Virus record (IMG/VR): IMGVR_UViG_3300010160_000035
Span: 1 to 64,000 of that record
Length of the DNA stretch: 64,000 bases
From: a virus
Reading direction: 5' to 3' (one strand)
Within the stretch, counting starts at the first letter, position 1; every line of letters begins with the position of its first letter. This document shows, piece by piece, positions 6,940-63,889 of this stretch. Below the pieces are notes generated by a model that searched no databases, was not told the origin of the DNA, and was given only the letters and a program-made list of their open reading frames with translations. Position numbers and translations under genes: made by a program.

Positions 6940-6948
6940 CGAGGGTCT

Positions 6949-6972
6949 AAAAAAAAGGGGGCAAAGCCCCCT
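6949..6972 (-). terminator. Rho-independent terminator at the convergence of the two gene blocks
   Basis: Minus strand reads AGGGGGC-TTT-GCCCCCT followed by a T-tract. Confidence 0.85.
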
Positions 6973-6977
6973 CTAAT

Positions 6978-7202
6978 TTAATCTAATGAAACTCCATAAT
7001 CATTTAGTAACTCATGGAGCATATCTCTAGCATCTTGATAAGCAGTAGCTGAACTGTCATCTAATGTAGTATCATACTTAAGTTTACCTCTTAGCTTTTG
7101 ATTTAAATCCCAAAGAACCGCTTTATAATCTCCTGCATGTACTGCATCATGAAATTCTACTTGTTCTTCAGGTAAAGTAAATGTTATAGTAGCCTTTGCC
7201 AT
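6978..7202 (-). CDS. Small conserved phage hypothetical protein
   Basis: Likely start MAKATITFTLPEEQ, which avoids overlap with the upstream ORF. Confidence 0.65.
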   Translation of the reverse strand: MAKATITFTLPEEQVEFHDAVHAGDYKAVLWDLNQKLRGKLKYDTTLDDSSATAYQDARDMLHELLNDYGVSLD

Positions 7203-7203
7203 G

Positions 7204-7542
7204 TTATTTAATTTTAAAAAACCATTTAACAATCTTAGGTAGTTTAGATAGTTGCTCATAAGCACTCTTTAGATTATAATCTAAATTATTATGTAAAGTT
7301 CTTATTCTAACATTATCAGCTTTTAGTTCCATTACTTGCTTAGAGTAATCTTTAATTTTAACATTAAGTTCTTCTAGCATTCTCTCATTAGCACTAAGAC
7401 CATTCTGTAATGAAATAATCTGAGATACTTTCTCATTAATCAATTCAGACTGTTTGTCAATTACTGGTGATGTTATACTAACATCTGCTACTAATGCATC
7501 TACTTGAGGCTTACGTGCTCTTCTTCTTGGTTTATTTTCCAT
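7204..7542 (-). CDS. Coiled-coil hypothetical protein
   Basis: 112-aa ORF with heptad-like pattern, in operon. Confidence 0.6.
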   Translation of the reverse strand: MENKPRRRARKPQVDALVADVSITSPVIDKQSELINEKVSQIISLQNGLSANERMLEELNVKIKDYSKQVMELKADNVRIRTLHNNLDYNLKSAYEQLSKLPKIVKWFFKIK

Positions 7543-7564
7543 TGCTTATTTATTTGTTTGTTGT

Positions 7565-9457
7565 TTATAAAGTTGTTATTTCACAGGCACCACCTGCACA
7601 AGCAGCTTGGTCTACTAAGTTAGTAATATCATCTTCTTCTGTAACTAAAGATAGGTCAATAGATGTTAATTGACCTACAAGATTGTTGTATTGTTGTTCT
7701 GTAATATCTTCAAAAGGTGCTTGACTATAGCTACCACCATCAAATGGAAGACAGCTTAATCCATTGTAGTACTCTTTATTTTCCCACATCCATTCTCCAA
7801 CTACTTCCCACTCATCTTTTTCAACATCTGTATGATCAAAATACATTCTACTTTTATCAATAGAGATAGTAGCAGATACATTATGTGTGTTATCTCCGTG
7901 TATATGTCCAGGTTTTATCCATTTCATGGACACGTTCTTAACTCTCTCTAATGTATGAATAGCAGTCTCAGTTCTTATTACAGAACCAGCAGGTGCTTTA
8001 ATAGGAATCTCAACTACTGCAGAATTAGGAATTAATAAATGGTCTTTAACTAGACTAGGGTGGTTTTGATTAAGATACTTATAAAGGTCTTCTGACTTAG
8101 ACATTTGCATTCTTCTAATATAGAAGTCATTATGCCAAGCATGAATACCTGATGCAGTACCTAATACACAGCTTGTAGTACCTGATGGCTTAACACAAGT
8201 AATTCTAGCTGCTCTATTAATACCTAAAGTTTGAGATAACTCAATATTAGTAAGATAAGCTATGTTAGCTGCTTCTGTAAGGTTATACTTAAATACCTCC
8301 ATGCTAGCAATACCAGTCATACCAATACCAACTAGAGCATCTTTCTCAGTAGTCTTTTTCCAAATAGGTCTTAGATAATGAAAATCAGTAAATCCTGCTT
8401 GTAAAGTACCAAAGAATGCTGCTGCAGTTACTCTATGATTTAAATCTTGTTGTGATTCAACATCACTTACATTAACTTCACATAGATTACAAAACTGATA
8501 AGGTCTTAATGCAATCTCACAGCAAGGATTAGTACCCCAATCTGGATTATTAGTAAAGTAAATACCAGGTTCACCAGCATTACTTAATTCAATCTTTCTC
8601 CATAAGTCTAAGAAAAACTCTTTAGTTATTCTGTGTCTTACAAGTACAGCAGAGTTATTAGCTCTACCTCTTTGTGGATTAAGTTCCCACCAATTACCAA
8701 ACTTACAAGTTAGCATTGATTCATCATCAGCACTAAACAAGCTAATCAAAGCTGCTCTTCTAATACCACCTGCAAGAACTGCATCTGCAATATGACAAAC
8801 TATATCATGAACTTCAACAGAAGATAGCTTTTGACCATTCTCTTTTCTTTCAAGGATTTGTTCTAATTCAAATAAGCATTTCTTAAGCGGCTCAGGTCCT
8901 GGTGCTTTACCACCAGCAGTAATTAATCTTGCACCTTTGTGTCTAATATCACTAAAGTCAAATCTAGGTTTAGTATTTCTAAAACCAAGATAACTTCCAA
9001 TCATATGCTTAACAGCATCAGCCCAACCTTCAATACTATCACCTACTAAGAACTTTTGTTCTTTAACAGGCTTATTAATTTCAGGTAGTTTCTCAATGTG
9101 TTTAAACTGTACAGAGTAACCTACTCCTGTACCACCAAGTAGTAAGAACATAATCTCACCAAAGGCTCTGTAGTCATCAATAGGTAAATAGCAACAGTTG
9201 TAGATTCTAGCTTCATTCTTTTGAATAGCAGGACCTGCAAACTGCAATGCTCTCATAGATGGTAATACCTTTTTATCAAAAATAAGCTGACCATGATTCA
9301 TAATATCATTAGCAAGGGCAGGATATTTATCTACCATCATCTGTAAGTATCTTACAATGATTTCATTATATGTTTCTCGTCTTTTTTGTTGTGGTAAGTA
9401 TTTAGCATACTTATTAAAGACTACCACGTTAGATAGTGTTTCTAATCCAATTTCCAT
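7565..9457 (-). CDS. nrdJ: Class II (adenosylcobalamin-dependent) ribonucleotide reductase
   Basis: Motifs NCCY, GTGVG, GGIRRAA, GTNPCCEI, TCVKPSGT and C-terminal ACAGGACE. No small subunit nearby. Start moved to ATG 9457, downstream of the promoter. Confidence 0.92.
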   Translation of the reverse strand: MEIGLETLSNVVVFNKYAKYLPQQKRRETYNEIIVRYLQMMVDKYPALANDIMNHGQLIFDKKVLPSMRALQFAGPAIQKNEARIYNCCYLPIDDYRAFGEIMFLLLGGTGVGYSVQFKHIEKLPEINKPVKEQKFLVGDSIEGWADAVKHMIGSYLGFRNTKPRFDFSDIRHKGARLITAGGKAPGPEPLKKCLFELEQILERKENGQKLSSVEVHDIVCHIADAVLAGGIRRAALISLFSADDESMLTCKFGNWWELNPQRGRANNSAVLVRHRITKEFFLDLWRKIELSNAGEPGIYFTNNPDWGTNPCCEIALRPYQFCNLCEVNVSDVESQQDLNHRVTAAAFFGTLQAGFTDFHYLRPIWKKTTEKDALVGIGMTGIASMEVFKYNLTEAANIAYLTNIELSQTLGINRAARITCVKPSGTTSCVLGTASGIHAWHNDFYIRRMQMSKSEDLYKYLNQNHPSLVKDHLLIPNSAVVEIPIKAPAGSVIRTETAIHTLERVKNVSMKWIKPGHIHGDNTHNVSATISIDKSRMYFDHTDVEKDEWEVVGEWMWENKEYYNGLSCLPFDGGSYSQAPFEDITEQQYNNLVGQLTSIDLSLVTEEDDITNLVDQAACAGGACEITTL

Positions 9458-23382: not shown

Positions 23383-23629
23383 CTTGTAGCTTTTTTAGTT
23401 TTTGCTCAATTTCTAATGTTTTTTCATGAGATACTCCACAGTTATAGAATCTAAAAGAGCTAAACTTACTCTTTATCTGAGAATAACTAAAATCAGGAAT
23501 TTTAATAAACTCTTGAAATTCATTATCTAGATATTCTATAGCTTCTGGATTATGCAAATCTAATCCATAATGACCATTTTCTAAATAGTCTGCGTATTTA
23601 ATATTAAATTCTTCTGCTGTTTTTACCAT
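23369..23629 (-). CDS. Conserved phage protein (QIKxKF motif)
   Basis: YSQIKSKFSSFRFY. Confidence 0.6.
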   Translation of the reverse strand: MVKTAEEFNIKYADYLENGHYGLDLHNPEAIEYLDNEFQEFIKIPDFSYSQIKSKFSSFRFYNCGVSHEKTLEIEQKLKKLQDGKS

Positions 23630-23832
23630 TTGTCTAAGTCTATGTTTGTTGGTCTAATTAATTTGTGTTTAGCTTCTTTCTTGACAAGAGGATTCCTATA
23701 AGTACCTTGTCTAAAGACACTAACAGGTTTCCTATGCCACCCACTTAAAGATTTTCTCTTATAGTGTGGGTGGTCAAAGTCAGGGTTACAGCTAAGTAAA
23801 AATACTAATAGAATTAAGATTAAGAATTTCAT
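23623..23832 (-). CDS. Small lipoprotein
   Basis: MKFLILILLVFLLSC signal peptide with lipobox. Confidence 0.6.
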   Translation of the reverse strand: MKFLILILLVFLLSCNPDFDHPHYKRKSLSGWHRKPVSVFRQGTYRNPLVKKEAKHKLIRPTNIDLDKW

Positions 23833-24148: not shown

Positions 24149-25039
24149 TTAGTTAATAAATTTACGAATTACATTACCATTCTCATACTTGATAATCTTA
24201 AATCCTGGTGTGTTTAAAGTTGTTGGTAATCCCATAATATCATACACTTTATATTGTAATGAGTATGGATAATAAACACTAATCATTGTGTATTCATGTC
24301 TCACACCATTAAAATCATACTCTACTAATCTATAGTAATTATTACCTTCATAAGGTTTATCATCTATAGTCTTGTAAGTCAGTGCTTTGATAGAGTTACC
24401 ACTAGCTTTAGTTCTATTAATCTCTTTAAAGTTAATAGCATCACTAGATTTCTCAATTACAAAGTAATCAGAACTTGTTTCAGTTGCTGTAGTCCAGCAT
24501 AAGTTTATTAAATTATCTTGTGTTTCACCTTGAAAACTTAATAATTCAATTACTAAAGGATTATCTACAAACCAATAAGGGCATATAGCATTAAATCCTT
24601 GACAAAATCTACCAACAGCAGTAGCTATTAGTGTCCATGTGTAAGTGTGTCCTTCTAATATTTGAAAGGAGTAACCTTCATCCACAAATTGACAAGTGGT
24701 GTTATCATATAATCCCGTATACAAAAAATTAACATTTGTACAAGACAATACACTATAGCCACTGTTAATATAAATGAAGTTATCAGCCACACTATTAAAT
24801 GTGAAAGAATAGGTAATAGAATTAGAAGCAGGAACAATATTATAACAATACTGGTTGTTTCTAAGGTACTCATAAGAGTCTGGTACATAGCTTATTTCTT
24901 TTAGCAATAATGTTGATGTGTCACAGGCAGAATCTAATCTGAGGTTACTATCAAACAGGCTATCTTCAATCTTTTTAAATCCTTGTCCTTGTAATGATAA
25001 TGAAGATATAATCAGCATTAAAATTAAAACAGGTTTCAT
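24149..25039 (-). CDS. Secreted protein with Bacteroidota 'PLPVEL' Ig-like domain and type A T9SS CTD-like tail
   Basis: Sec signal MKPVLILMLIISSLSLQG-Q. Domain PLVIELLSFQG...WTTATE..SDYFVIEKS...NYYRL.EYD.NG. Tail YDIMG...GFKIIKYENG.VIRKFIN. Confidence 0.8.
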   Translation of the reverse strand: MKPVLILMLIISSLSLQGQGFKKIEDSLFDSNLRLDSACDTSTLLLKEISYVPDSYEYLRNNQYCYNIVPASNSITYSFTFNSVADNFIYINSGYSVLSCTNVNFLYTGLYDNTTCQFVDEGYSFQILEGHTYTWTLIATAVGRFCQGFNAICPYWFVDNPLVIELLSFQGETQDNLINLCWTTATETSSDYFVIEKSSDAINFKEINRTKASGNSIKALTYKTIDDKPYEGNNYYRLVEYDFNGVRHEYTMISVYYPYSLQYKVYDIMGLPTTLNTPGFKIIKYENGNVIRKFIN

Positions 25040-27315: not shown

Positions 27316-27500
27316 ACTTTTTGAATTTTGTTTATCATTTCTACAATTTCAGATTTATGTTCTCTTACTCTATATGGAGTATTTGTTGTTCCTACTGATG
27401 TACAATTAGGTAATTCATATAAACTAACAATATGATTTATATTAATATATATAGAACTATCATTATCTTGCAAATTTAGTTTAATAAATATATTTCTCAT
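27306..27500 (-). CDS. Hypothetical protein (FlbD-like small beta fold)
   Basis: FIKL...IYININHIVSL...VRE...EIVEMI. Confidence 0.5.
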   Translation of the reverse strand: MRNIFIKLNLQDNDSSIYININHIVSLYELPNCTSVGTTNTPYRVREHKSEIVEMINKIQKVWV

Positions 27501-27751
27501 AATTTTCTTAGTTGTTTTAGTATTTTTTCTTTGTTTTCAATAGCAAACCAGTACATGTGTACATTTTTTCTGTAGTTAGTACTCCATCCTGGAGAGTATT
27601 CTAGTAAATCTTCACGTTTATCTAATGTTTTTGCTACTAAAGTATCAGTAGTAATTACAATCATTACACAGTCTTGATATACTATATGCATGTTTCTTTG
27701 TGAATAACTATTAATAGTTATAAACAGTAATAATGTTAATATTGCTTTCAT
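27497..27751 (-). CDS. Small secreted protein
   Basis: Signal MKAILTLLLFITINSYS-Q. Confidence 0.55.
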   Translation of the reverse strand: MKAILTLLLFITINSYSQRNMHIVYQDCVMIVITTDTLVAKTLDKREDLLEYSPGWSTNYRKNVHMYWFAIENKEKILKQLRKL

Positions 27752-50640: not shown

Positions 50641-51072
50641 ATGACTTGCTATAACTCAGAATTACCAATAGGTCCTCCAGGACCAACTGGTCCAATAGGT
50701 CCTCAAGGGCCTGCGGGCACACCTATATATAAAGTTTATACTGCTTTATTAACAGAAACACCGGGAAATCCTCCTACTGTTAATACATTAGAAAACACAA
50801 CTGATTTTGATTTAAGTTTTAGTAGATTTGATGGTGGTAAATACAGATCTAATACATTTGCAGCAGATTTAAATAAAATTACAATAACTTGTAATATTGG
50901 TTATTATAACCTTGCAAATCCTATTTTAATTGATGGTATTACAATATCTTCATTAGTTGTAGATGCAGGTTCTGGTAATATATATTTTGAATTAAGAACA
51001 GTAATTAATGGTCTTGGAGCAAGCGATGAATTATTAACTAATGCAGTATTAGAATTAAGAATATACCCATGA
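50641..51072 (+). CDS. Short collagen-repeat structural protein
   Basis: GPPGPTGPIGPQGPAG followed by YKVYTALL...LELRIYP. Confidence 0.65.
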   Translation: MTCYNSELPIGPPGPTGPIGPQGPAGTPIYKVYTALLTETPGNPPTVNTLENTTDFDLSFSRFDGGKYRSNTFAADLNKITITCNIGYYNLANPILIDGITISSLVVDAGSGNIYFELRTVINGLGASDELLTNAVLELRIYP

Positions 51073-54000
51073 TACTAACACCTTTAAATATACAAGTAGC
51101 AATAATTAAAGCATTCTATGCTTTAGCTAAGAAATCAGTTAAGTACTATACAGGACTTGCTTTAGGTAAGAATAATACTTGTCTATTTAAAGAAATAAGA
51201 TTACTTAGAGCTTATGTAGAAATACTTAGAAACTTTGAGATAGTAGGTAGTACTATTACCTGTAACTGTTGTGTTGAAGGTGACTTTAATGTATTACTAA
51301 ATTCTGATTTACCAGTAACTGATACACCTATACAATTTGGTTGTGATAACCAAGGATATATGGTATATAATGGTATTGGATATGAGTTTACATACTTTTA
51401 TGATGATGCTAATAAAAAAATAGTAATAGATTTTTCAGGAGTATTAAATGATGTAGTTATTACTATTACTGATGTACAATTTACAGATACTTGTGATATA
51501 ACAGGGAATGCTGTTTCACCAATAGAAGTAGCTACTATAGATGAGATTACAGAACCTCCAGTTACAGTAGACAATGATTTTGGTACTTGGGATGGTAATA
51601 TAACTATATATGAATCTGATGGAAGTACAGAACTTGTACCACCTATAAGTTTAACTATTCCTGCAGCTGACATGGATAATGTAGAAGCTATTTTAGAACT
51701 TTGGAATACTACATATCCTGAATGGATTTTACAGTATTTTGAAGGACAGTTTGTTTTATATTCTCCATTTGATAATGTAAATTATACTGATTATATTGTA
51801 AAATTTAAACAATATGAAGGTGGTACTGATGCTACTTTAGATTTTGATTTATCAGAACTACCTCCTTTTATAACTGAGAATACACCATCTTACGCTGATA
51901 TATTATTTGAACAACCTACTTTTGCAGCTAGTCATGTAGCAGAAACTACAATAGCACTATCTTCTGGAAGATTGCCTTATAATGTTACTGCAGATCCTGC
52001 ATCTGTTACTATATTAATACCAATTGATCAATTTGCTGTTGGTGAACCAGCAACAATGAGTATTCCATTATACGAATTATTTAATTCTACAAATCAAGAT
52101 TTTTATTATTTAGGTATGCCTATGTTTAGTCATTCTGGTACTTATACTGGCATGCCTCAATTAATAGATGATTTTAATGTAAATAATGGTCAAGGATTTA
52201 CAGCAAGTTATGGTGGTATACAGCCAATAAGTGAAACATTAGCAACAGCTTCAAATATATCTACACTGTTTAATATTGCTGTACCTACAGATGTGTATAC
52301 AGCTAGATTATTTAATCAAAGTTTAAGTATTAATCTTACTATAGGTACATACACAGTAGGTGGAGATGATGTTCCTGAAGATATAGCAAATTTTATAGCT
52401 GCTGATATTATTGCTCAAGATATATTTGAAGGTACTGTTAGTGTAAGTGGAACAGTTATTACATTAACTGCACCAACAGGTACAGGAGCTTCTTGGAATG
52501 CTGTGTATTCATTTACTATACAAAGAAATGCTACTAGAATTAATACTTATGTTTTTAGTGGTGGTGTAGGGGTTCCAACTACACCAATATATTTATTAAA
52601 TATTACAGCACTTAATATTTATCCACAAACAGATTACGATGGAGGAATAATTGAAATTAGATATCCAACAGAAATGTATGACCCTGATGGAGGTCAATTT
52701 GCAGGTGCAGTAGATAATACTGATGGTATAGTAAAATTTACTAATTCTTATCTTGGTCCTAATATTATTTATAATACTGGACCATCTATTCCACCATCAG
52801 AAATTTTTACTAGCATATATGATATGTTAGATTCTTTTAATTTTAGTAATACTTTATTAGCGCAAGCTACTGTAACAGGAACTAGTGGTCCAAACTATGT
52901 AGTAAATATAGTAGTACCTACACCACCAGCATGGGCTTATAATGGTACTACTTTAAAATACGAGTATATATCAAATAGAACTTATATCAATATTGGCACT
53001 TATTCTGGAGGTTCAGATACTACAGCAGCTACTTATACTTTAGTAATACTTGATGATTCTAATGATCCATTTTTAACAGTAATTGGTACAGGTAATTTTT
53101 CAAATTATCAAGGTATTGTAAATAGTTTAAATAGTCAATCTACTTTTAATTCAGATTTTATAGCATCATTAAGTGTTAATAATATTATTATTACAACATT
53201 ATATGATCCACAAGGAGCTTTTTATAATGATTACAGTTTTCAATTAGCTTTAGATTATACATCTATGCAGTATACAGCAAATGATTTTGTAAGTACAGTT
53301 GGTATAATGTCTGGTGGTTTAGATGCTGTAGCTCCAAATATTACCCTTGTTAATGAATTTATTCCTCTTACTATTTTAGATTTACCTCAAAATAGTTATG
53401 ATGTAGATGGTATTAGTGGATTTGTAGATTATTTTAATGGTCTTAGTCCATACAATTATTCAGCAGAATATCTTGGTACTTCTCAAGATTTACCTGAAAT
53501 ACTATCTCAAAGTTTGCTTAACATGCCTAGCTTAACTGGAGACATACCAAATACTGTATTAAAAGCTTTTTATGCACCTTCTGTTATTTCTGCACCTACT
53601 TTAATAGGTACATTTACACCTACTACAGGTGGAGATTATACACCTAGTGGATTAGCATTAGGATTAGCAAATGCTGTAAATTTAAATGTTTGGGATGGTA
53701 CAGCAACAACTAATCTTTCTACTTTAATATTGTCATCACCTTCAGGTACTTTTGGTTCTTATAATAACTATATATCTGCAGTAACTTTAAAAGTACCTAA
53801 TGCTAAAGCAATAGTTAATGTTACATTTTTAACACCTTCTACAGGAGCAGGCACAGTAGAATTAACTGTATCTTTTGGTTCAGTTAGTCTTGGAATACAG
53901 TCTATTCCAGTAGCACAAACTGCAGTTCAATGGGCAACTGCTTATAAAAATAGAATTAATTCTGGTACAGGAACACATGGTTATACAGCTTTTACTTCAA

Positions 54001-54806
54001 CTAGCAGTCCAACTATATCAATATATGCTCCTGCAAATACAGGTACTATTTTAAATACTGCTACTATTTCAGCAGTAACTACTGGTGGTGTTACAATAAA
54101 AACAACTCCAACACCTACGTTTAATGGTGGTACAGATACTACTACTACTGTAGCATTAAATGTTTTTTCAGGAGGTGGTTATACTATTTATGATAAAGTT
54201 AGATTTACAGCAGACCCTGATATATATACTTGGGAATATACTGATGATCTTATAAACGGTAATTTAACTTATACTAATCTTACAGCTTCTCCTAATTATA
54301 TTAATACAGGTGCATTTTTTGGTGGTATTGATAATACTGCAGGACAATTTAGTTTAGTATTAACTAATACACCGCCTGCTTTTCCAGCTTTATTTTATGT
54401 TTTATATAATGACTCTACGCCTGTTATTTATGATTCATTTCAAGAATGGGTAGATGCTGTAAATAATTCTGCTAGTAACTTAGATTTTAGTACTTCTGTT
54501 TTAACTACAGATTTTACAGTACATTCACCTGAAGACAGTTTTGCTTATTTTAATAATTCTGAATTAGCAATAGACTATACATATGCATCACCACAATGGA
54601 GTGGTTTTAATTATAGTAATACAGAGACAATTATTAATGGGTTAGACCCTGTATTAACATCTTATGAAGGTATATTTGAAGCAGGTGTATTAGGTAATTT
54701 TATAAAGAGTAATAACCCTTGTACACCTACAATAGCAACACAGACTTGTTTAACTAATAACCAAGCAAGTAAAATTATACAACATATAAACAAACTAACA
54801 AAATAA
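51069..54806 (+). CDS. Large tail-associated structural protein
   Basis: 1245 aa, T/S/G-rich beta modules with repeated F(S/A)GG.D ends. Confidence 0.65.
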   Translation: MILTPLNIQVAIIKAFYALAKKSVKYYTGLALGKNNTCLFKEIRLLRAYVEILRNFEIVGSTITCNCCVEGDFNVLLNSDLPVTDTPIQFGCDNQGYMVYNGIGYEFTYFYDDANKKIVIDFSGVLNDVVITITDVQFTDTCDITGNAVSPIEVATIDEITEPPVTVDNDFGTWDGNITIYESDGSTELVPPISLTIPAADMDNVEAILELWNTTYPEWILQYFEGQFVLYSPFDNVNYTDYIVKFKQYEGGTDATLDFDLSELPPFITENTPSYADILFEQPTFAASHVAETTIALSSGRLPYNVTADPASVTILIPIDQFAVGEPATMSIPLYELFNSTNQDFYYLGMPMFSHSGTYTGMPQLIDDFNVNNGQGFTASYGGIQPISETLATASNISTLFNIAVPTDVYTARLFNQSLSINLTIGTYTVGGDDVPEDIANFIAADIIAQDIFEGTVSVSGTVITLTAPTGTGASWNAVYSFTIQRNATRINTYVFSGGVGVPTTPIYLLNITALNIYPQTDYDGGIIEIRYPTEMYDPDGGQFAGAVDNTDGIVKFTNSYLGPNIIYNTGPSIPPSEIFTSIYDMLDSFNFSNTLLAQATVTGTSGPNYVVNIVVPTPPAWAYNGTTLKYEYISNRTYINIGTYSGGSDTTAATYTLVILDDSNDPFLTVIGTGNFSNYQGIVNSLNSQSTFNSDFIASLSVNNIIITTLYDPQGAFYNDYSFQLALDYTSMQYTANDFVSTVGIMSGGLDAVAPNITLVNEFIPLTILDLPQNSYDVDGISGFVDYFNGLSPYNYSAEYLGTSQDLPEILSQSLLNMPSLTGDIPNTVLKAFYAPSVISAPTLIGTFTPTTGGDYTPSGLALGLANAVNLNVWDGTATTNLSTLILSSPSGTFGSYNNYISAVTLKVPNAKAIVNVTFLTPSTGAGTVELTVSFGSVSLGIQSIPVAQTAVQWATAYKNRINSGTGTHGYTAFTSTSSPTISIYAPANTGTILNTATISAVTTGGVTIKTTPTPTFNGGTDTTTTVALNVFSGGGYTIYDKVRFTADPDIYTWEYTDDLINGNLTYTNLTASPNYINTGAFFGGIDNTAGQFSLVLTNTPPAFPALFYVLYNDSTPVIYDSFQEWVDAVNNSASNLDFSTSVLTTDFTVHSPEDSFAYFNNSELAIDYTYASPQWSGFNYSNTETIINGLDPVLTSYEGIFEAGVLGNFIKSNNPCTPTIATQTCLTNNQASKIIQHINKLTK

Positions 54807-54811
54807 AAAAT

Positions 54812-55207
54812 ATGAGTAATTATTATCCAGCTGGAAGGCTGTACCAAAAACTAATGATTGCATTAGATCCTAGTGCAAAATGTGTAGTAATTGCAGCAGC
54901 ACTTACTGGTGGTGGTAGTGCTAAAGCAATATTAAAAACAGACTTTGCTGCTACACCTGCTAAATACCCAAACTATACAACAGAATCATTTGCTGAAATG
55001 TTAGATCAAGTAAATATGTTTCAAATTATAGGAGCAACTGGCCAAGCTGCATATAAATTTAACGACAGTGCAACATCTGGAGCTATAGTAGCTCCTACTG
55101 AAGTTCAAGGTGGAGTATATTTATACGGGCAAGAAAACTTTAATAACTTGTATTTTACTGCAGGTACTATTACACACTTAGCTTTATTTATTAAACCTAC
55201 ACCTTAA
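54812..55207 (+). CDS. Structural protein, hypothetical
   Basis: 131-aa ORF in the tail operon. Confidence 0.55.
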
Positions 55208-58200
55208 TGGCATTTTTTGGTAACAAGAGAAAGGACTTTAGTATTCAACCACCTAGGCAACAGGTAGATGGTACTCCTTTTTTTGTTACTGATAGTGCTA
55301 ATATAGATTTTACATTAGCTAATTTAAATTTAACTGCTAACTTAACTACAACAGGAATAACAGCAGGTACTTATGGTGATGCTACACATATACCTATATT
55401 AACATTAGATAGTTATGGTAGAGTAACAGGAGTAAGTACAACTACATTCTCAGCAGCAGGTATATTATTACAAACTAATACTGTAACTAATGCTACACAA
55501 ACTATATTAAACTTAGTAAATGGTACTGATATATCCATTGTTGATGATACTTTAGGCAATATTACTATTTCATATACAGGTACTGGAGGTAGTGCAGTTT
55601 GGGGTTCTATTACAGGTACATTAACTAGTCAAACAGATTTAATTACTTATCTATCAACTAATTACCAACCTATAGGTAGTTATCAACCTCAACTTAATGG
55701 TACAGGATTTGTTAAAGCTGCTGGTACTACAATATCTTATGATAATAATACTTATTATTTAGCAAGTAATCCTAGTAATTTCATAACAGCATCTGCTTTA
55801 ACTCCATATTTAACTATTACTAGTGCAGCTGCTACATATGAACCTATAATAACAGCAGGAACAATCTCTCAATATTGGAGAGGTGATAAAACTTGGCAAA
55901 CATTTCCCACTATACCAACTGTTGGTACTTGGGGTGCTCTTAATTACCCTGCATGGACTACAGGTACTCCATTTGTTAAAATGACTGCTGCTGGTACATT
56001 TGCTTTAGATACTAATACATATCTAACTACAATATCAGGATTAAATATATCTTTATTAACTAATGATTCTGGGTATATAACTTCATCTGCTTTAACAGGG
56101 TATGTACCAAATACTAGAACATTAACTATCAATGGTACTACATATGATTTATCAGCAGATAGGTCTTGGACTATACCTACATTTACTTCACCTCTTACAA
56201 CTAAAGGTGATATATATGTAAGAAATGGAAGTGCAGATACAAGGCTTGGTGTAGGAAGTGATACATATGTTCTTATAGCAGATAGTACGACATCTACAGG
56301 GCTTAAATGGGGGTCTAACACAACACCTCCTGCAAGTGGATACTATTTTGCAATATCAGATAGTACAACACAAGATAATCCAACTGCCAATATACCAAGA
56401 GCAGTTAAATTCAATACTACCGATTTAGCTAATGGATTCTCTTTACAAACAGAAACTGCTGTTTTTACAGGAACAATCAACAATGGTGGCGCAGGAGCAG
56501 GAACAATATTAAATGTTACAGGTGTTACATCAGGAACATTAAAAGTGGGTATGGTGTTAACAGGTGGCAGTATAACTGCTGGTACATTCATATCTGCATT
56601 TACAAGTGGTACAGGAGGAATAGGTACTTATGTAGTTTCTATTTCACAAAATAGAACATCTGCTACCTATACAGGAACAATGACTTCGCAGATTGTTGTT
56701 GCCCATACTGGCATCTATAATATTCAGTTTTCATCACAAATGGATAAAACTGATGCAGGTGTTGATTATGTTAATTTTTGGCTTAGAAGAAATGGAGCTG
56801 ATGTAACTGCAAGTTCTGGTGTTGTTTCATTACAGGGAAATTCTCCTGCATACATGATGGCTGCTTGGAATTATCTTATAGAATTAATAGAAAATGATGT
56901 AATAGAGTTATATTGGGGTAGTGCTGATGTTGGTATGTCAATATTAGCAGAAACAGCTCAGACAAGCCCATTTGCACATCCTTCTATACAATCTACAATA
57001 CTTACAATTACTCAGCAGAGTGGTATATTGGCAGGGACGGGTATCACCGCCATCAACAGTCTTACGGCATCAGCACAGACATTATCAAGTACTGACCTTA
57101 ACATATCATCTTCTGTAGCAACGCATACATTTTCAATAGCCAACAACGCTGTTACGTATGCTAAAATGCAAGCTATATCAGCAGTATCGAAGCTGCTTGG
57201 TTCTAGCTCTACTACCACACCTGTACAAGAGATAACACCAACGAAGTCAATAAATATATTAACTACTAATCTAGAACTAGTAAACGATCAAACTTCGCCA
57301 GCTTATCCTGGCGTTTATGGTATTGATTCCGCAGGGGCGAAAAATTGGCGTTCAGATGCAAGCGTAAGGGGAAACATTCCCCTATTAAATATGCAAGAAT
57401 CTTATCCCGTAGGAACAAATCAAACGGGTATTTTATACGTCGCAAGTGTTAGCAAACTTTACGTTTGTAATTTATCAGGAAGTACAGTCAATATTTTCGA
57501 TACTACAACAGGCGTTTTGCTTTCTACAATAGCCGTTACAAATGCTTATAAACCATTTTACATTGCATCAATTAATGAAGTTTGGGTAACTTCAACAACA
57601 TTATTAACAATTAATAGAATAAGTGCAACATTGAATAGTTCACTTGGAACTATAATTGGTGCAACTATATTCGGAACAGAGGCGATTGAATATTCATCGA
57701 CAAAAGTTTTTATTTGCTGCGGAAATGCAACGGGAACGATAATGTTAATTAATCCGTCTACATTATTAGTTACATCTACAATTGCATTAAATGTTCCAGC
57801 ATCTCCACAAGGAATGGTATTAAATACAAATGTAGCTTCTTCGCAATACGATAAAATAATTGTTTCAGCATCTGCTGGAGTTGCAATATTAAACCCATCA
57901 ACAAACGCAATAACTACAACCGTTGTTAATCCTTCAAGTTCAATAAGCACAGGAACGAAAATTAGATATATAACATCGACAAATCAATATGTTTTATCAA
58001 GTTTCGGAAATAATTCAATTGTCGTTTTAGATATTGCAAGCGCAACAACATTTACTTTAAATTCAACTATTAGAAATTTGCCTGGTATTTTAGATGTTGG
58101 ATTAGATGAAACAAGCGGTTATATTTTTACTGCATTTACAGGACTTACAAGTGCTTCACAATTATTTATTTCGCTAATTGATTTAACAAGTAAAAAGGTT

Positions 58201-58341
58201 AAAATAACAATTGGAACAAATGTTCTTTGTGGTTCTGCTTCTACCTCAGGATACTTAGCAATGGATACGCCAAATACACGTTTCTTTATTTGTGGGCGTT
58301 CATCCAATACAAATGTTGCAACTACAATTAAATATTTATAA
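55207..58341 (+). CDS. Tail fibre / receptor-binding protein with C-terminal beta-propeller
   Basis: Fibre modules (AGTYG...[34 protein letters not shown]), a C1q/BclA-like domain and YVTN-like blade repeats at the C-terminus. Confidence 0.8.
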
Positions 58342-58516: not shown

Positions 58517-58972
58517 ATGAGCAAGATAACATCAACCAGCAAGAATGGAATAAACCTTATCAAGTCATTTGAAGGTTGTAAACTACAAGCATATAATGAT
58601 CCTGGAACTGGAGGATTACCAATTACTATTGGATGGGGTAATACAACTAAAGAAGATGGTAGTAAGTTTAAACTAGGTGATAAAATAACACAAGAAAGAG
58701 CAGATGCTTTATTCTTAAATTTACTTCCTAGATATGAAAAGAAAGTTATTGATAATATTACAGTACTTCTAACACAAAACCAATTTGATGCTTTAGTTTC
58801 TTTCTGTTGGAATTGTGGATACTCATCTACTCTATTCTCATTAATCAATACTAAAACTAGTAATGAAACAGTATATGATTGGTGGATTTCTCACTACATT
58901 AAAGGTGGGGGTAAGATACTAAAAGGTCTAGTTAGACGTAGAAAAGCTGAAGCTGATTTATACTTTGCTTAA
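58517..58972 (+). CDS. Endolysin, GH24 lysozyme
   Basis: IKSFEGC.L.AY.D...TIGWG, NQFDALVSF and GLVRRR.AE. Confidence 0.92.
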   Translation: MSKITSTSKNGINLIKSFEGCKLQAYNDPGTGGLPITIGWGNTTKEDGSKFKLGDKITQERADALFLNLLPRYEKKVIDNITVLLTQNQFDALVSFCWNCGYSSTLFSLINTKTSNETVYDWWISHYIKGGGKILKGLVRRRKAEADLYFA

Positions 58973-58977
58973 TTAAG

Positions 58978-58985
58978 TATCTTTG
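58978..58985 (+). promoter_or_regulatory. Bacteroidota -7 box 4 nt before ATG
   Basis: TATCTTTG-TAGT-ATG. Confidence 0.6.
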
Positions 58986-58989
58986 TAGT

Positions 58990-59460
58990 ATGAAGAAATT
59001 CCTACTTTGCCTGCCATTATTGTTAGTATTTACTTTTGTAGGAGGAGATCAACCTTCTGCCTATATACAAGGAGATGTAACTATACAGCCTATTGTAGAG
59101 AATGAAGATTTAGATATTAAATCACAATACATAAGAAGCATCAAAGTATACTACAAAGACCCATTAGAAAAGCCTATCATATTACAGAACAACCAAGCTT
59201 TATACAACTATTGCTCAGATTCAACATTAGTTATTTTTAAATCTGTTGCAGATTCTATAAAAGTACCTAGTGTTAAAAGAATGTCTTGTGAGATAATGGC
59301 TATTATTAACCTAACTAAAAGAGATTCTGAGTGGTTAAAGTCACATATTGTCAATGAAGTTGCAGTAGTAAACACTATTACAGATAACAGATTCTCTGTT
59401 TATATGGATGATACTGAGTACTTTAGAAGACTAATGCTTAAATACAATGCAAAGTATTAA
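58990..59460 (+). CDS. Secreted/periplasmic hypothetical protein
   Basis: Signal MKKFLLCLPLLLVFTFVGG. Confidence 0.65.
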   Translation: MKKFLLCLPLLLVFTFVGGDQPSAYIQGDVTIQPIVENEDLDIKSQYIRSIKVYYKDPLEKPIILQNNQALYNYCSDSTLVIFKSVADSIKVPSVKRMSCEIMAIINLTKRDSEWLKSHIVNEVAVVNTITDNRFSVYMDDTEYFRRLMLKYNAKY

Positions 59461-60331
59461 ATGGATACTGCTATTAGTAACAAGCATAAGTTTTGCTCAA
59501 TGTCCAAATATAGGATTTGAAAGTAATAACTTTAGTGGATGGGTAGGTAGCAGAGGAGCTTGTTGTCCTATAGTTATGACAAATGCAGGTATAGTTGCTA
59601 ATAGACATACTATAACTTCAGGAACAGCAACAGACCCTAGTACTTGTAATGTAGTTCCAATAGTTGCTCCAGGAAGTATTCATTCTGCTAGATTAGGTAA
59701 TAATGATGTTAATGCAGAAGCTGAAGGTTTAAGTTATAATTTTACAGTAACACCAACATCTAATTTAATTACATATCAGTATGCTGTAGTGTTTGAAGAT
59801 CCAGGACATACACCATCACAACAACCTAGATTTGAAGCATCAATAGTTAGAGCTAATGGAACTGTTGTATCATGTACACAATTTACAGCAACTGCAGCTA
59901 GTGGTTTAACAGGATTTCAATTTTGTAATAGCATTGATGTTTTAGGATTACCAGTAATTGTTAGATACAAGAATTGGAGTACAATAGCTGCAGATGTTTC
60001 TGCATACATGGGTCAAACTTTAACTTTAAAATTTAAAACAGGAGACTGCTCACAAGGAGGACACTTTGGTTATGCTTATGTAGATGCTAGTTGTGGACCA
60101 TTACAATTAGCTATAGATTACTGTGTTAATGATATGTATGCAGTAGTTACTGCACCATCAGGATTCTTTACTTACTTATGGTCTACAGGAGAAACTACAC
60201 AAACTATTTATGTAAATCCACTGCAAGCTATTAATGTTACTTGCACTATAACAACTGTCTCAGGCTGCACATCTACAGTATCAGTACCAATAACACCAAT
60301 TGCTAATTTCCCTGCAATCTATACCAATTAA
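59447..60331 (+). CDS. Secreted adhesin-like protein (N-terminal domain typical of Bacteroidota gliding-motility-CTD proteins)
   Basis: Signal ...SFA-Q. Motifs CPNIGFE.NNF.GW, SARLGN, YAVVFEDPGH...QPRF, DC.QGGHFGYAYVD and YLWSTGET. Ends PAIYTN. Confidence 0.75.
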   Translation: MQSIKWILLLVTSISFAQCPNIGFESNNFSGWVGSRGACCPIVMTNAGIVANRHTITSGTATDPSTCNVVPIVAPGSIHSARLGNNDVNAEAEGLSYNFTVTPTSNLITYQYAVVFEDPGHTPSQQPRFEASIVRANGTVVSCTQFTATAASGLTGFQFCNSIDVLGLPVIVRYKNWSTIAADVSAYMGQTLTLKFKTGDCSQGGHFGYAYVDASCGPLQLAIDYCVNDMYAVVTAPSGFFTYLWSTGETTQTIYVNPLQAINVTCTITTVSGCTSTVSVPITPIANFPAIYTN

Positions 60332-60368
60332 TTGTATTTATTTTATAGTTATCTTTGTAAAATACTAT

Positions 60369-60929
60369 ATGAAAAATTTGGTAGTGTCAATTATTTTTAT
60401 ATTACTTTGTGCAACATGTTATGCACAAGTACCTACACCCCTTGTTGCCAATGGACAAACTGTCTGTGTAGGTGCTAATCACTACTATGGGGATCAAGTA
60501 ATTACACCATCATCTACTTATGCATTTAGTATAACACCAGTTCAAGCATTTAGTGTTGTAGGAAAACAAATAAATGTTACTTGGAATATACAAGGAGTAT
60601 ATACTATTACTATGACAGAAACAACATCTTCAGGATGCTTGTATACAACTACTTGTATTATTACTGTATTGCCTCCTATAACAATAGCATTAGATCCTAT
60701 TGTTGTATGTCAAGATGGATTACCACAAACTATAACAGGAACTAACATTGGCTCTAACCCATCTTTTAGTGGAGTAGGAGTATCTAATAATACATTTAAT
60801 CCTTCAGGTATATTACCTGGGATATATACTATAAACCTAACTTCAACAACAGCTAATGGTTGTGCTACAGTAGGCACCACAACAGCAACAATAAATCCAC
60901 TACCAACAGGCATTATATATACAGATTAA
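60369..60929 (+). CDS. Secreted Ig/PKD-like repeat protein
   Basis: Signal MKNLVVSIIFILLCATCYA-Q and Cys-paired Ig-like repeats. Ends PTGIIYTD. Preceded by TATCTTTG at 60350. Confidence 0.72.
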   Translation: MKNLVVSIIFILLCATCYAQVPTPLVANGQTVCVGANHYYGDQVITPSSTYAFSITPVQAFSVVGKQINVTWNIQGVYTITMTETTSSGCLYTTTCIITVLPPITIALDPIVVCQDGLPQTITGTNIGSNPSFSGVGVSNNTFNPSGILPGIYTINLTSTTANGCATVGTTTATINPLPTGIIYTD

Positions 60930-61486
60930 TGAAACTATATGCATTGTTTTGTTTAATTAGTTTAAATATAAATGCACAGACACTTAAAGAATATGAACTA
61001 TGCAATGACTATTTAACTAAAGAAATTAGAGCTGTAACTACAAATGCTGTTGTAAGTTGGGAGGTTTCACCTTATGTACCATACCAAGTAAGTAATAATG
61101 TTATGACTATTACTTTTAGCAGTACAGGCTATTATGTTATAAGTGCTGATTTTAGAAGTGGTGATTGTTATAAAGAAGATAAAATAATAATAATAATAAA
61201 AGAATGTACAGAGACTTTTATTTATTTTCCCAATAGCTTTACACCTAATGGTGATAATGACAATGAAAGCTTTGGACCAAAAGGAATAAATGTTTATGAT
61301 TTTAAAATGTATGTATATAACAGATGGGGAGAGTTAATCTTCACTGCAAAGGATATAAGTGATAAATGGAATGGCTATTATAAAGATAGAATATGTCAAA
61401 GTGATATATATGTTTATAAAGCATTCTATAAAGATAAAAGAGGTAAGGAGTATAATAAAATTGGTAAAATAGCACTAATCAAATAA
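60929..61486 (+). CDS. Secreted protein with type B T9SS CTD (gliding motility-associated C-terminal domain, CHU_C)
   Basis: Signal MKLYALFCLISLNINA-Q. Domain IYFPNSFTPNGDNDNE.F...YNRWGE.IF...WNG...YVYK...G.I.LIK. TAATG coupling. Confidence 0.9.
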   Translation: MKLYALFCLISLNINAQTLKEYELCNDYLTKEIRAVTTNAVVSWEVSPYVPYQVSNNVMTITFSSTGYYVISADFRSGDCYKEDKIIIIIKECTETFIYFPNSFTPNGDNDNESFGPKGINVYDFKMYVYNRWGELIFTAKDISDKWNGYYKDRICQSDIYVYKAFYKDKRGKEYNKIGKIALIK

Positions 61487-61495
61487 ACCTAACTT

Positions 61496-61810
61496 ATGGA
61501 TCAGAACTTACTATTAGCAATCATTGCAGGAGCATCATCAACATTGACAATCCTTATACCTAAAATGTTACCTCACAGTAAAAAGAAAGATGCTATTGAG
61601 ATGTATGCAGAATTACAAGAAAAACTATTTAGTGAAATAGATAGATTAGAGAAAAAGATAATACTATTAGAAAACAAAGAAAAGGAAGCTGTTAGTGTAG
61701 AAGAAAAACTCACTAAGAGAATCATGGAACTAGAACAAGAAAATAAAAGACAAGCTTATGAAATTGAACAACTTAAAGCAGAACTTGCTAAACATGTCAA
61801 AAACTACTAA
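61496..61810 (+). CDS. N-terminal TM plus coiled-coil protein (holin/antiholin-like)
   Basis: One hydrophobic N-terminal helix and a charged coil; lysis context. Confidence 0.5.
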   Translation: MDQNLLLAIIAGASSTLTILIPKMLPHSKKKDAIEMYAELQEKLFSEIDRLEKKIILLENKEKEAVSVEEKLTKRIMELEQENKRQAYEIEQLKAELAKHVKNY

Positions 61811-62051
61811 AGACTCATTCATTGAATCCCTTAAAGGTAGCAGTGGTAAAATAGACCATAAAAGATTAACAGTATTAGCTTTTGTATTGATGTTTGTTGG
61901 TATAACTATAGTAGGCTTGTATAAAAAAACACCTATTGTAAACCAAGCATTAATGGAAACTATACTGTATATAATTGGATCTGTTATATTAGGAGGGATG
62001 GGATTAACAAAAATAAAAACAAAAACAGAAACAACTACAAATGAAACTTAG
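61794..62051 (+). CDS. Putative holin (2 TM)
   Basis: GKIDHKRL followed by two hydrophobic helices; directly before the endopeptidase. Confidence 0.6.
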   Translation: MSKTTKDSFIESLKGSSGKIDHKRLTVLAFVLMFVGITIVGLYKKTPIVNQALMETILYIIGSVILGGMGLTKIKTKTETTTNET

Positions 62052-62553
62052 TAAAAACTTCACATTAGATGAGTTACTCAAGTCACCATCTGCAACCAGG
62101 TGGGGCTTTGAAGAACAGTTTACACCTACACAAGACATAGTAAATAACCTTACTTTGTTGTGTAATAAAGTGTTACAACCTATTAGAGATATTCTAAAAG
62201 ATACATTAACAGTATCATCTGGATATAGATGTCCTAGATTAAATGCTAAAATTGGTGGTGCCTACACTATTATTAATGGTAAACCTGTACAAAGTTCACA
62301 GCATTGTTTTGGACAAGCTGCAGATATTGGTTATACTAAACTAGGTGCAGAGCATAACAACTTAATTTTAGCAGCTATCAAAGAATTAATGTCTGATCCA
62401 ACTTTTGTATTTGACCAATGTATAGTAGAATTTGGTACAGATACTAATCCTGCTTGGGTACATATTTCTTATTCAGAGAGAAAAAACAGAATGCAAGTGC
62501 TTAGAGCATACAAGTCAGGTAAAAAAACATTATATAAAGAATGGAAACTATGA
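62041..62553 (+). CDS. Endolysin, peptidase M15A family
   Basis: LSKNFTLDE, VLQPIRD, SSGYRC, SQHCFGQAADI and WVHISY. Confidence 0.9.
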   Translation: MKLSKNFTLDELLKSPSATRWGFEEQFTPTQDIVNNLTLLCNKVLQPIRDILKDTLTVSSGYRCPRLNAKIGGAYTIINGKPVQSSQHCFGQAADIGYTKLGAEHNNLILAAIKELMSDPTFVFDQCIVEFGTDTNPAWVHISYSERKNRMQVLRAYKSGKKTLYKEWKL

Positions 62554-63125
62554 AGAAACATAACACTTGGATAGGTATTGAAGCAGTTATAATTGGATTA
62601 CTCATTTTAGTACTATTATTTTTAAAGCAATGTGAGAGTAATGTTGAGGTTACTAATCCTATTAGCAGAGTAGTGTATACAAAAACAGATACAGTTACTA
62701 TAATTAAAACAGATACAGTTACAAGATATGTTACTCTTAAAGTTCCAAAACCAATTCCCCATGTAACACCTGATGGTGATACAGCACAAACTTATGTTCA
62801 AGAATATAGTGATAGTATTTTAGATGCTACTGTAACAGCTAACCTAAAAGGCAAACTAGATTCTTGGGCATTAAAGTATAAACTTAAAATCCCTACTACT
62901 ATAACTAACACAATAACAGTTACTAATACTGTTACTGAAACTAAAGAAGTCAATGTTCCTAAGAACATGTTATTTGTTAATGGTGTAGTTGTAGGTAATA
63001 CTACTAGCCTTGATGGTGGTATAGGTATATCTTTTTATCATAAAAAAGGTTATATTTACCAACTGAATTACCTACCTATGACCAATAAAGTTGTAGTTGG
63101 TGTATCATTCCAATTAAATAGATAA
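62550..63125 (+). CDS. Membrane-anchored spanin-like protein
   Basis: N-terminal TM, Thr-rich stalk (repeat KTDTVT) and C-terminal beta strands; last gene of the lysis cluster. Confidence 0.45.
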   Translation: MKKHNTWIGIEAVIIGLLILVLLFLKQCESNVEVTNPISRVVYTKTDTVTIIKTDTVTRYVTLKVPKPIPHVTPDGDTAQTYVQEYSDSILDATVTANLKGKLDSWALKYKLKIPTTITNTITVTNTVTETKEVNVPKNMLFVNGVVVGNTTSLDGGIGISFYHKKGYIYQLNYLPMTNKVVVGVSFQLNR

Positions 63126-63127
63126 CT

Positions 63128-63889
63128 ATGATAACATTAAACCAAATGATTTATCAAGTCTATGAAGGACTTCAGATTACATCTGATGATACTTCATTAG
63201 ATAAAAGATTAATTAGAGATTTAATTAATCAATCAAGAGCTAATTGGATTAGAAAAGAACACAACAAGAACAGAAGTATTGATGATAATATCATCCAAGA
63301 TTTAGGTTGTATAGACATTGAACTTACAGATAGAGTATCAGCTAATTGCTGTGATATATCTACAGAATGTAGGATTCTCAGATCTAAAGAAAGAATACCT
63401 AATGCTATTGAGTTAAACCATGAAAAGATAATCACTAGAATATCAGCAGTAGACTTTATGTCTATTCCTATTATATTTATGGATTATGATGCTGCTATTT
63501 ACTTTGGTAATGGTAGATACAATAAGAAAGCTTTAGCTGCTTTCATTAAGAACAACTACTTATATATTATATATAACAAAGGTGCATTCAATATGCTAAT
63601 TGAGAAACTAAATGCTCAAGGTGTATTTGAAGACCCTACAGAAGCTGCATCATTTACTAATGATTGTGGTACACCATGCTTTACTTGGGATTCTCGTTAT
63701 CCTATTAATGCTTGGATGTGGCAGACTTTAGTTAAACCAGAAGTACTTAATGAATTAAGAAGCAAGAGAACTCTATACAGAGATGATAACAACAATGCTA
63801 AGGATGATGCTATTCCATCAGTAGCAGCTAATTTTACACAAGCTGGTACAGATCCTGGACAAGGTAGACAGAAACAACAAGAAGAATGA
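63128..63889 (+). CDS. Tail ring/adaptor structural protein
   Basis: DDTSLD.RLI...QDLGCIDIE...ILRSK..IP...GVFEDP...YPI, a crAss-like ring-protein pattern. Confidence 0.65.
   Translation: MITLNQMIYQVYEGLQITSDDTSLDKRLIRDLINQSRANWIRKEHNKNRSIDDNIIQDLGCIDIELTDRVSANCCDISTECRILRSKERIPNAIELNHEKIITRISAVDFMSIPIIFMDYDAAIYFGNGRYNKKALAAFIKNNYLYIIYNKGAFNMLIEKLNAQGVFEDPTEAASFTNDCGTPCFTWDSRYPINAWMWQTLVKPEVLNELRSKRTLYRDDNNNAKDDAIPSVAANFTQAGTDPGQGRQKQQEE

Follow-up and report, generated by a model that had tools for sequence, protein, structure and literature searches.

Cargo proteins of the system for type IX secretion (T9SS) are understood as single chains, each with its own C-terminal signal. The closest described relatives of the locus reported here are adhesins of the SprB/RemA type from Flavobacterium johnsoniae ('gliding motility-associated C-terminal domain' proteins), which combine a Sec signal, an N-terminal head, PKD/immunoglobulin (Ig) repeats and a C-terminal CHU_C/TIGR04131 domain in one chain. 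The T9SS moves folded proteins (PMC9251779), and proteins whose C-terminal domain (CTD) is of type B are held by PorP-like proteins (PMC9143113). Phage-encoded T9SS cargo was reported once in the literature we searched, for Cryophage (Bellas et al. 2020; PMC7468147). Here we describe a cassette of four genes, A to D, in a viral sequence from the IMG/VR collection. The window we analyzed is the first 64 kb of the 79.6-kb record IMGVR_UViG_3300010160_000035, which CheckV rates as 86% complete. We consider it somewhat likelier than even that the cassette encodes a split adhesin whose chains are joined by C-terminal tails and exported via the host T9SS onto the infected Flavobacteriales cell. The cassette shares the domain order of the single-chain adhesins, and PorP/SprF-like anchoring would be expected for it too (PMC9143113). 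It differs from them in having three chains predicted to be exported separately, two of which lack a CTD and carry a conserved tail, in being encoded by a phage, and in having no adjacent sprF-like gene.

All four proteins begin with putative export signals, which we called heuristically from the n-region, a hydrophobic window and a cleavage site. The N-termini of A, B, C and D each combine a K/R-containing n-region with a 10-residue hydrophobic window (mean Kyte-Doolittle value 2.5-3.5), and comparable signal-like N-termini occur in only about five of the other 86 open reading frames (ORFs). The signals of B, C and D end between A and Q, the signal-peptidase pattern of Bacteroidota (Q-rule), and those of relatives of A end between A or S and Q-Q-P. 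All four signals are of the cleavable type, and a lipobox and a transmembrane anchor are absent from all four proteins. The conserved cysteine pairs of A, C and D fit an oxidising compartment. An earlier reading of the window, made from the letters alone (the sequence-only reading), had listed four consecutive ORFs with Sec-type signals, three of them ending A-Q; coordinates and N-terminal features both agree with that description.

We assigned the T9SS signal to a single chain. D consists of a signal peptide, one Ig-like domain and a type B T9SS CTD (residues 99-174), and it is the sole cassette protein with a CTD; A, B and C lack one. The sequence-only reading had placed a type B CTD on the last ORF, and scans with PF13585 CHU_C (47.7 bits, cut-off 27) and TIGR04131 (50.7 bits, cut-off 35) both exceeded the curated cut-offs. 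C is made up of a signal peptide and two PKD-like Ig domains. It gave weak matches to PKD_4 and Invasin_D3, and its relatives match PF19408 PKD_6. The C family comprises 185 clusters of uniform length (~180-190 aa). The N-terminal domain of D is homologous to the first domain of C (hhalign probability 82) and showed no significant likeness to the second domain of C in hhalign. In every phage and bacterial locus examined, the genes for C and D adjoin, and the stop codon of the first overlaps the start codon of the second.

B had no Pfam match. An exhaustive HMMER search returned 7200 homologues (936 at E<=1e-30), most of which are 500-4700 aa long with the B-like region at their N-terminus. The heads at the N-terminus of single-chain head-PKD-CHU_C proteins share ~50% identity with B, whose residues 222-290 behave as a repeat unit in the homologues. 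PKD repeats and a C-terminal CHU_C domain were present in seven of ten sampled homologues. The last three ORFs thus reproduce, as separate chains, the domain order of one Bacteroidota surface protein, as had been proposed from the sequence. The AlphaFold model of B (pLDDT 87.8) has a jelly-roll head, one Ig-like domain and a low-confidence unstructured tail. Its Foldseek matches were to CBM61, CBM16, CBM4, MAM domains and an Epf adhesin domain (E ~1e-5 to 1e-4). We predict from this model that B is a lectin/CBM-like binding head and not an enzyme. An assignment of the head as a TANFOR-type polymorphic toxin (PMC7073777) was rejected after finding no NCBIfam match.

B and C, which carry signal peptides and no CTD, end in a short conserved tail. 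The extreme C-terminus of C relatives reads I-x-[H/Y/T/F]-[N/D] in 120 of the 120 members listed from the family of 185 clusters (IYTD 29, ISHD 23, ISHN 20, IQHD 14, IQHN 14, IFHD 6 and ten others). The same motif class ends every head protein, B-type or other, in the nine cassettes examined. Among the 150 best relatives of B, the tail was found at the end of only six, all of them short (281-458 aa) and CTD-less, where it takes the form I-x-H-N. Where relatives are fused, the stretch aligned with the tail (P-I-F-T-Y-N-D, for instance) forms the strand that opens the following PKD domain. The tail and the acceptor strand of D vary together across three lineages, the pairs being IYTD with KEIRAV, ISHN or ISHD with NTFTYY, and IQHN with TDFDYS.

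We modelled the complex of mature C with mature D. The interface score (ipSAE) was 0.63, 0.61 and 0.64 in three runs, compared with 0.00, 0.21 and 0.00 for controls, so the subunit modelling that the sequence-only reading had suggested gave a C-D score (0.63) well above the best control (0.21). According to the tool's own statement, the ipSAE mark is reached by 58 of 80 solved complexes and by 2 of 110 mismatched pairs, a calibration that holds only roughly for models built from a user's own alignments. At least 92% of contacts were common to the three runs, and partner pLDDT was at least 86. The confident interface places the tail of C (residues 176-186) on residues 31-40 and 71-88 of D. I183 and Y184 of C sit on D strand 33-36, beside strand 84-86, where the first strand of an Ig fold would lie. 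These models support docking of the C tail as a strand on the Ig domain of D, and by analogy the tail of B probably docks likewise on C. An isopeptide lock at the terminal residue of the tail, which is always Asn or Asp, was not adopted, as the N-terminal domain of D has no invariant Lys.

The proposed arrangement resembles that of chaperone-usher pili and type V pili (FimA/Mfa1), where tip, stalk and anchor are joined by a terminal strand that completes the next Ig-like fold; for the cassette this likeness comes from the model. The cassette differs from those systems in lacking an usher, a PapD-like chaperone, lipoprotein precursors, proteolytic maturation and pilin homology, and in its predicted export via a T9SS CTD. 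Among the neighbours of the cassette we found no Pfam or NCBIfam match to chaperone, usher or pilin-type families.

We propose the following path for the split adhesin. Sec would export all four chains to the periplasm, as their signals and conserved cysteines suggest, and the chains would fold there. The C tail would then join the N-terminal Ig domain of D as an added beta-strand, as in the model, and the B tail may do the same on C. The head-stalk-CTD order would in this way be rebuilt without covalent bonds, with B as the tip, C as the stalk and D as the anchor. Led by the CTD of D, the assembly would pass in folded form through the host T9SS, or else the pieces may come together at the surface, and a host PorP/SprF-type protein would presumably retain the assembly on the outer membrane. 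The outcome would be an exchangeable, phage-specified, lectin-like head on a short stalk at the surface of the infected cell.

The most serious alternative, which we rate as unlikely, is that D is the only T9SS cargo. A, B and C would then be independent periplasmic proteins, the tail a protease or sorting tag or a leftover of splitting, and no multi-chain structure would form. B and C have no CTD of any kind, and the literature searched offered no case in which a CTD-less protein passes through the T9SS attached to a partner. Further points count against a split adhesin. Modelling covered mature C with mature D, so a single interface is at hand, and its score is a model confidence obtained from our own shallow alignments of 9-10 rows. 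In this lineage, the mature N-terminus of C has 13 residues ahead of the conserved Cys, leaving room for a first strand of its own, so the first domain of C may not be a tail acceptor. The cassette lies inside a late structural/lysis operon, an odd site for an exclusion function. Finally, type B cargo often needs a cognate partner, and we found no PF11751 match at E<=1 in the whole 79.6-kb record, which agrees with the earlier observation that no PorP/SprF gene is visible; a host-encoded partner would be needed. Set against the D-only explanation are the tail itself, invariant in all 120 C relatives listed and the part of C that contacts D in the model, and its change in step with the acceptor strand. 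A lectin-like head confined to the periplasm would also have no obvious target, and the fused proteins' order is always recovered when B, C and D are taken together.

We compared the cassette with related loci from other samples. An independent freshwater run contained an identical 2233-nucleotide (nt) contig over positions 58783-61015, spanning the end of the lysozyme gene, A, B, C and the start of D. Two other runs (X3 and X4) yielded only diverged relatives on short contigs. In crAss-like relatives from other samples (L002, L003/L005 and L006-L011), A, C and D are kept at 40-60% identity in the same place. This survey, which the sequence-only reading had proposed, thus recovered the same synteny. 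The identical contig and the synteny together exclude a chimera with host DNA, a possibility that had also been raised. The constant site of the cassette lies within the crAss-type tail module, with the tail-fibre genes on one side and the holin/M15 lysis genes on the other. The sequence-only reading had seen the cassette as inserted between two endolysins. Genes for a lysozyme and an M15 peptidase do flank it here, but the lysozyme is an incidental neighbour, missing in three relatives (L002, L006 and L007). The downstream lysis genes are syntenic in all relatives.

The cassette is conserved in at least six distinct crAss-like relatives while the head is swapped. We found three forms of the head: the 294-aa protein of the window, an unrelated head of 319-323 aa, and a 450-aa form with an extra N-terminal domain, where the gene order is B-A-C-D. 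No link between head type and tail-fibre type was visible in the few genomes compared. The ratios of nonsynonymous to synonymous substitution rates (dN/dS) against the closest relative are 0.09 for A, 0.28 for B, 0.18 for C and 0.15 for D, beside 0.19 for the M15 endolysin and 0.16 for the ring protein, and the cassette is under purifying selection. These values bear on the idea that the phage once captured a host adhesin gene, of which the cassette would be a functionless, decaying remnant. The pieces do resemble one gene cut into three. Each piece nevertheless has its own start and signal peptide, dN/dS is 0.09-0.28, the C family keeps a uniform length across its 185 clusters, and the arrangement persists in relatives that share 40-60% identity, as it does in bacteria and in other phage lineages. 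We regard decay as highly improbable.

The split set also occurs in large viral contigs unrelated to crAss-like phages. A 190-kb contig (L012) encodes C-like, D-like and then B-like proteins, a 175-kb contig with a T4-type large terminase subunit (TerL; L013) has the order C, D, B, and a third contig (L018) has the order B, C, D. Seven contigs of jumbo-phage size (L014-L017 and L020-L022; 29-225 kb) instead carry, at about positions 6001-8640, a fused protein of 877-884 aa with a signal peptide, a head ~50% identical to B, six PKD domains and CHU_C, encoded beside a DnaK-like gene. Both the fused and the split form thus exist in phages. At the DNA level, the sole match to the block in 50,697 phage records was a lysozyme fragment in a cyanophage, and no cultured phage relative carrying the cassette was present among them. 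A tblastn search of D against the same records matched only LR745206.1 and LR756502.1. Both come from uncultured phages 630-640 kb in size and each have three to four CHU_C-like sites.

When prokaryotes were scanned with one genome per species, the split operon turned up in freshwater Flavobacteriales, on chromosomal scaffolds of their metagenome-assembled genomes (MAGs). On a 974-kb scaffold (L027, positions 2817-7162), a 771-aa CUB+PKD head ending I-T-H-N is accompanied by two C-like genes whose products end I-Q-H-N and by a D-like CHU_C gene. Its three tailed chains (one head, two C-like) match three Ig acceptors only if the N-terminal domain of C also accepts a tail, and the locus fits a chain of that kind. 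A second operon (L029, positions 3649-7299) has a head with SprB repeats ending I-I-H-N, and there is a further chromosomal split-adhesin operon at positions 81-4351 of L030. Heads vary among the three operons (CUB+PKD+P-domain or SprB repeats), each pairs a short CHU_C anchor with one C-like gene or two, and all the CTD-less chains end I-x-H-N. The split kit is therefore bacterial as well as viral, with interchangeable tips. The sequence-only reading had inferred that the phage uses the host T9SS to display a multi-subunit surface structure of its own. In silico, the set of cargo features, the adhesin pieces and the C-D model that scored above its controls are in keeping with this idea, but the cassette is peculiar neither to this phage nor to phages.

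These loci also bear on two readings that start from the genomic position. One holds that the proteins are virion parts or tail-fibre accessories and that their hydrophobic N-termini are not cleaved export signals. By position the block does belong to the tail module, following the tail-fibre genes and preceding crAss ring protein 2, and its head is swapped among relatives like a receptor-binding part. We consider a virion role very unlikely, given that canonical signal peptides with Bacteroidota A-Q sites are unfit for cytoplasmic virion assembly, D bears a secretion CTD, the cassette proteins have no PHROG structural matches, and the bacterial copies of the operon have no phage genes nearby. 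According to the other reading, the four exported proteins are lysis machinery that acts in the periplasm or on the T9SS pore and breaches the outer membrane, no spanin being recognisable. In the crAss-like lineage the cassette is always beside a holin-like gene and an M15 endolysin gene, sometimes with a lysozyme, and we identified no clear spanin pair. In jumbo-phage contigs and bacterial chromosomes, the same cassette stands without lysis neighbours. The chains are parts of adhesins, homologous to cell-surface proteins, and B, C and D lack a lipobox or membrane anchor. The only PHROG match of A-D to a spanin family was at chance level (Rz-like, E 0.048). A role in lysis is thus quite unlikely, if a little less so than a place in the virion.

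A broader and more tentative proposal, which we think doubtful, is that of a hitherto undescribed, T9SS-dependent, pilus-like fibre built by strand docking. D would provide an acceptor and the CTD anchor, C would provide both an acceptor and a donor tail in one or many copies, and heads would be donor-tail tips (B here; CUB or SprB-repeat heads in bacteria). CTD-less chains would ride on a CTD-bearing partner, and phages would thereby place a chosen head on the infected cell. On this proposal, the Asn or Asp that invariably ends the tail might even signal a lock, either covalent or mediated by a metal.

What this lytic-looking phage might gain from a surface-displayed split adhesin is a guess. 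The sequence-only reading had suggested superinfection exclusion, jamming of the receptor or adhesion in a carrier state, all of which are conjecture. The guess we prefer is surface remodelling encoded beside the host-range genes, which could mask the receptor against superinfection or against loss of progeny on debris, or it could make infected cells stickier. Receptor masking, exclusion and adhesion are reasonable guesses because the cassette lies beside tail-fibre genes, because its head is swapped, and because of the link between gliding/T9SS and phage sensitivity. T5 Llp and the Cor proteins of phi80 and N15 are small outer-membrane lipoproteins that block receptors and are encoded beside phage receptor-binding genes. 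The cassette likewise encodes exported phage proteins directly next to tail-fibre genes, a likeness of position only and a candidate analogy for the benefit. It differs from Llp and Cor in being a multi-domain adhesin with a T9SS signal, and there is no sequence or structural likeness. Gliding/T9SS genes are reported to be tied to phage sensitivity in flavobacteria (PMC9804748).

The new element in this locus would be split type B cargo with docking tails, phage T9SS cargo as such being known already (PMC7468147). In the literature searched, we found nothing on split type B cargo or docking tails. Cryophage is likewise a Bacteroidota phage, with variable genes for proteins with T9SS sorting domains, and its authors proposed use of the host T9SS. 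Its CTDs, by contrast, are of type A and sit on enzymes made of one chain (an endoglucanase, a GH39 protein and a PA14 protein). Here the CTD is of type B, and in crAss-like and jumbo phages it belongs to a predicted adhesin of several chains that carry docking tails. If the split-adhesin reading is true, CTD-less chains that dock by a four-residue-class tail on a small CTD anchor would represent a new rule of T9SS assembly and export, and Bacteroidota would have in this kit a naturally occurring plug-in system for displaying proteins on the surface. Lake crAss-like and jumbo phages would then reshape the surface of infected Flavobacteriales through the host secretion/gliding apparatus, the same apparatus that is mutated in phage-resistant flavobacteria.

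We also examined A, the remaining predicted exported protein of the cassette. A is modelled as a 15-kDa beta-sandwich with helices (pLDDT 84.5) and has an invariant pair, Cys75/Cys100. Its family consists of 47 clusters, all metagenomic and ~156 aa long, and it matched no Pfam, NCBIfam or PHROG family. Foldseek against the PDB returned nothing at E<=0.001. The best VIA-align match, to IalB (3dtd), had a Z of 7.1, inside the range that the tool deems common, and we did not accept an IalB-like fold. A search of BFVD found one unnamed viral protein (TM score 0.5), and the ESM Atlas held only unnamed viral and Bacteroidota clusters. A homologue lies 1.4 kb from the cassette in the 190-kb contig L012 (hhalign probability 97.4). 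A occurs only in the crAss-like lineage and in this contig and is absent from the bacterial operons, so it is dispensable for assembly as such.

The sequence-only reading had pointed to TATCTTTG boxes ahead of A and C. Both boxes are present (Table 1), but the exact octamer is not enriched, with nine occurrences against 5.8 expected. The wider pattern TAnnTTTG is enriched about four-fold: across the whole record, 14 of 90 gene starts, those of A and C among them, have it ending 0-45 nt upstream, compared with ~3.5 expected. Structural genes with an upstream TAnnTTTG include the portal gene and the genes at 43258, 46037, 47795 and 49181. This pattern suggests that the phage uses host-type promoters with very short leaders.

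The source virus is a freshwater crAss-like phage. A PHROG search matched the crAss-type terminase, portal and major head protein (phrog_6681, phrog_6547 and phrog_11589), TerL is ~31% identical to that of crAss-like, Flavobacterium and Cellulophaga phages, and downstream of the cassette lies the gene for crAss ring protein 2. Homologues point to a host among the Flavobacteriales. The four genes that follow the cassette (61496-63125) are a likely lysis set conserved in all relatives: a transmembrane/coiled-coil protein that may be i-spanin-like or antiholin-like, a holin-like protein, the M15 endolysin and an anchored 194-aa protein. Within this set we saw neither a clear o-spanin lipoprotein nor a clear spanin pair.

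Table 1. Positions of the cassette, its tails and promoter boxes, and other genes of the window mentioned in the text.
Feature	Position	Strand	Remarks
Large tail-fibre genes	51069-54806 and 55207-58341		Upstream of the cassette
Lysozyme, GH24-type	58517-58972	+	PF00959, 106.7 bits; phrog_7 endolysin; optional neighbour, outside the conserved cassette
TATCTTTG	58978-58985	+	Fits TAnnTTTG, the -7 promoter box of Bacteroidota; 4 nt ahead of A
A, putative exported protein	58990-59460	+	156 aa
B, proposed tip subunit	59447-60331	+	294 aa
Tail of B	60308-60328	+	F-P-A-I-Y-T-N; low-confidence unstructured end in the monomer model
Second TATCTTTG	60350-60357	+	11 nt before the start of C
C, proposed stalk subunit	60369-60929	+	Stop overlaps the start of D (TAATG)
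Tail of C	60894-60926	+	Residues 176-186, ...P-L-P-T-G-I-I-Y-T-D
D, proposed anchor subunit	60929-61486	+	
Type B CTD of D	~61223-61450		
Transmembrane and coiled-coil protein	61496-61810	+	
Holin-like protein with two transmembrane segments	61758-62051	+	Weak holin match
M15 peptidase endolysin	62041-62553	+	PF08291, 42.3 bits; phrog_894 endolysin
N-terminally anchored 194-aa protein	62541-63125		phrog_25644
crAss ring protein 2	63128-63889		PF25702 CrAss_Ring_2, 128.9 bits
69-aa lipoprotein	23623-23832	-	LLSC lipobox; early/middle region
296-aa signal-peptide protein	24149-25039	-	Early/middle region
84-aa ORF	27497-27751	-	

Three genes elsewhere in the window encode proteins with export features. 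Homologues of the 69-aa lipoprotein (40% identity, E 2e-20) and of the 296-aa signal-peptide protein (30% over 128 aa, E 2e-8) are encoded directly beside the cassette in the jumbo contig L012, and a TAnnTTTG box lies 4 nt upstream of the 296-aa gene, as with A. Judging from these sequence matches, the two proteins may belong to the same exported set as the cassette. The 84-aa ORF has a signal peptide ending between S and Q and is without a family match. On an 11-kb viral contig (L004, positions 3-242), a partial ORF has a CHU_C-like C-terminus 43% identical to residues 98-163 of D. It adjoins radical-SAM, methyltransferase and 2OG-oxygenase-like genes, and it may represent another phage T9SS cargo.

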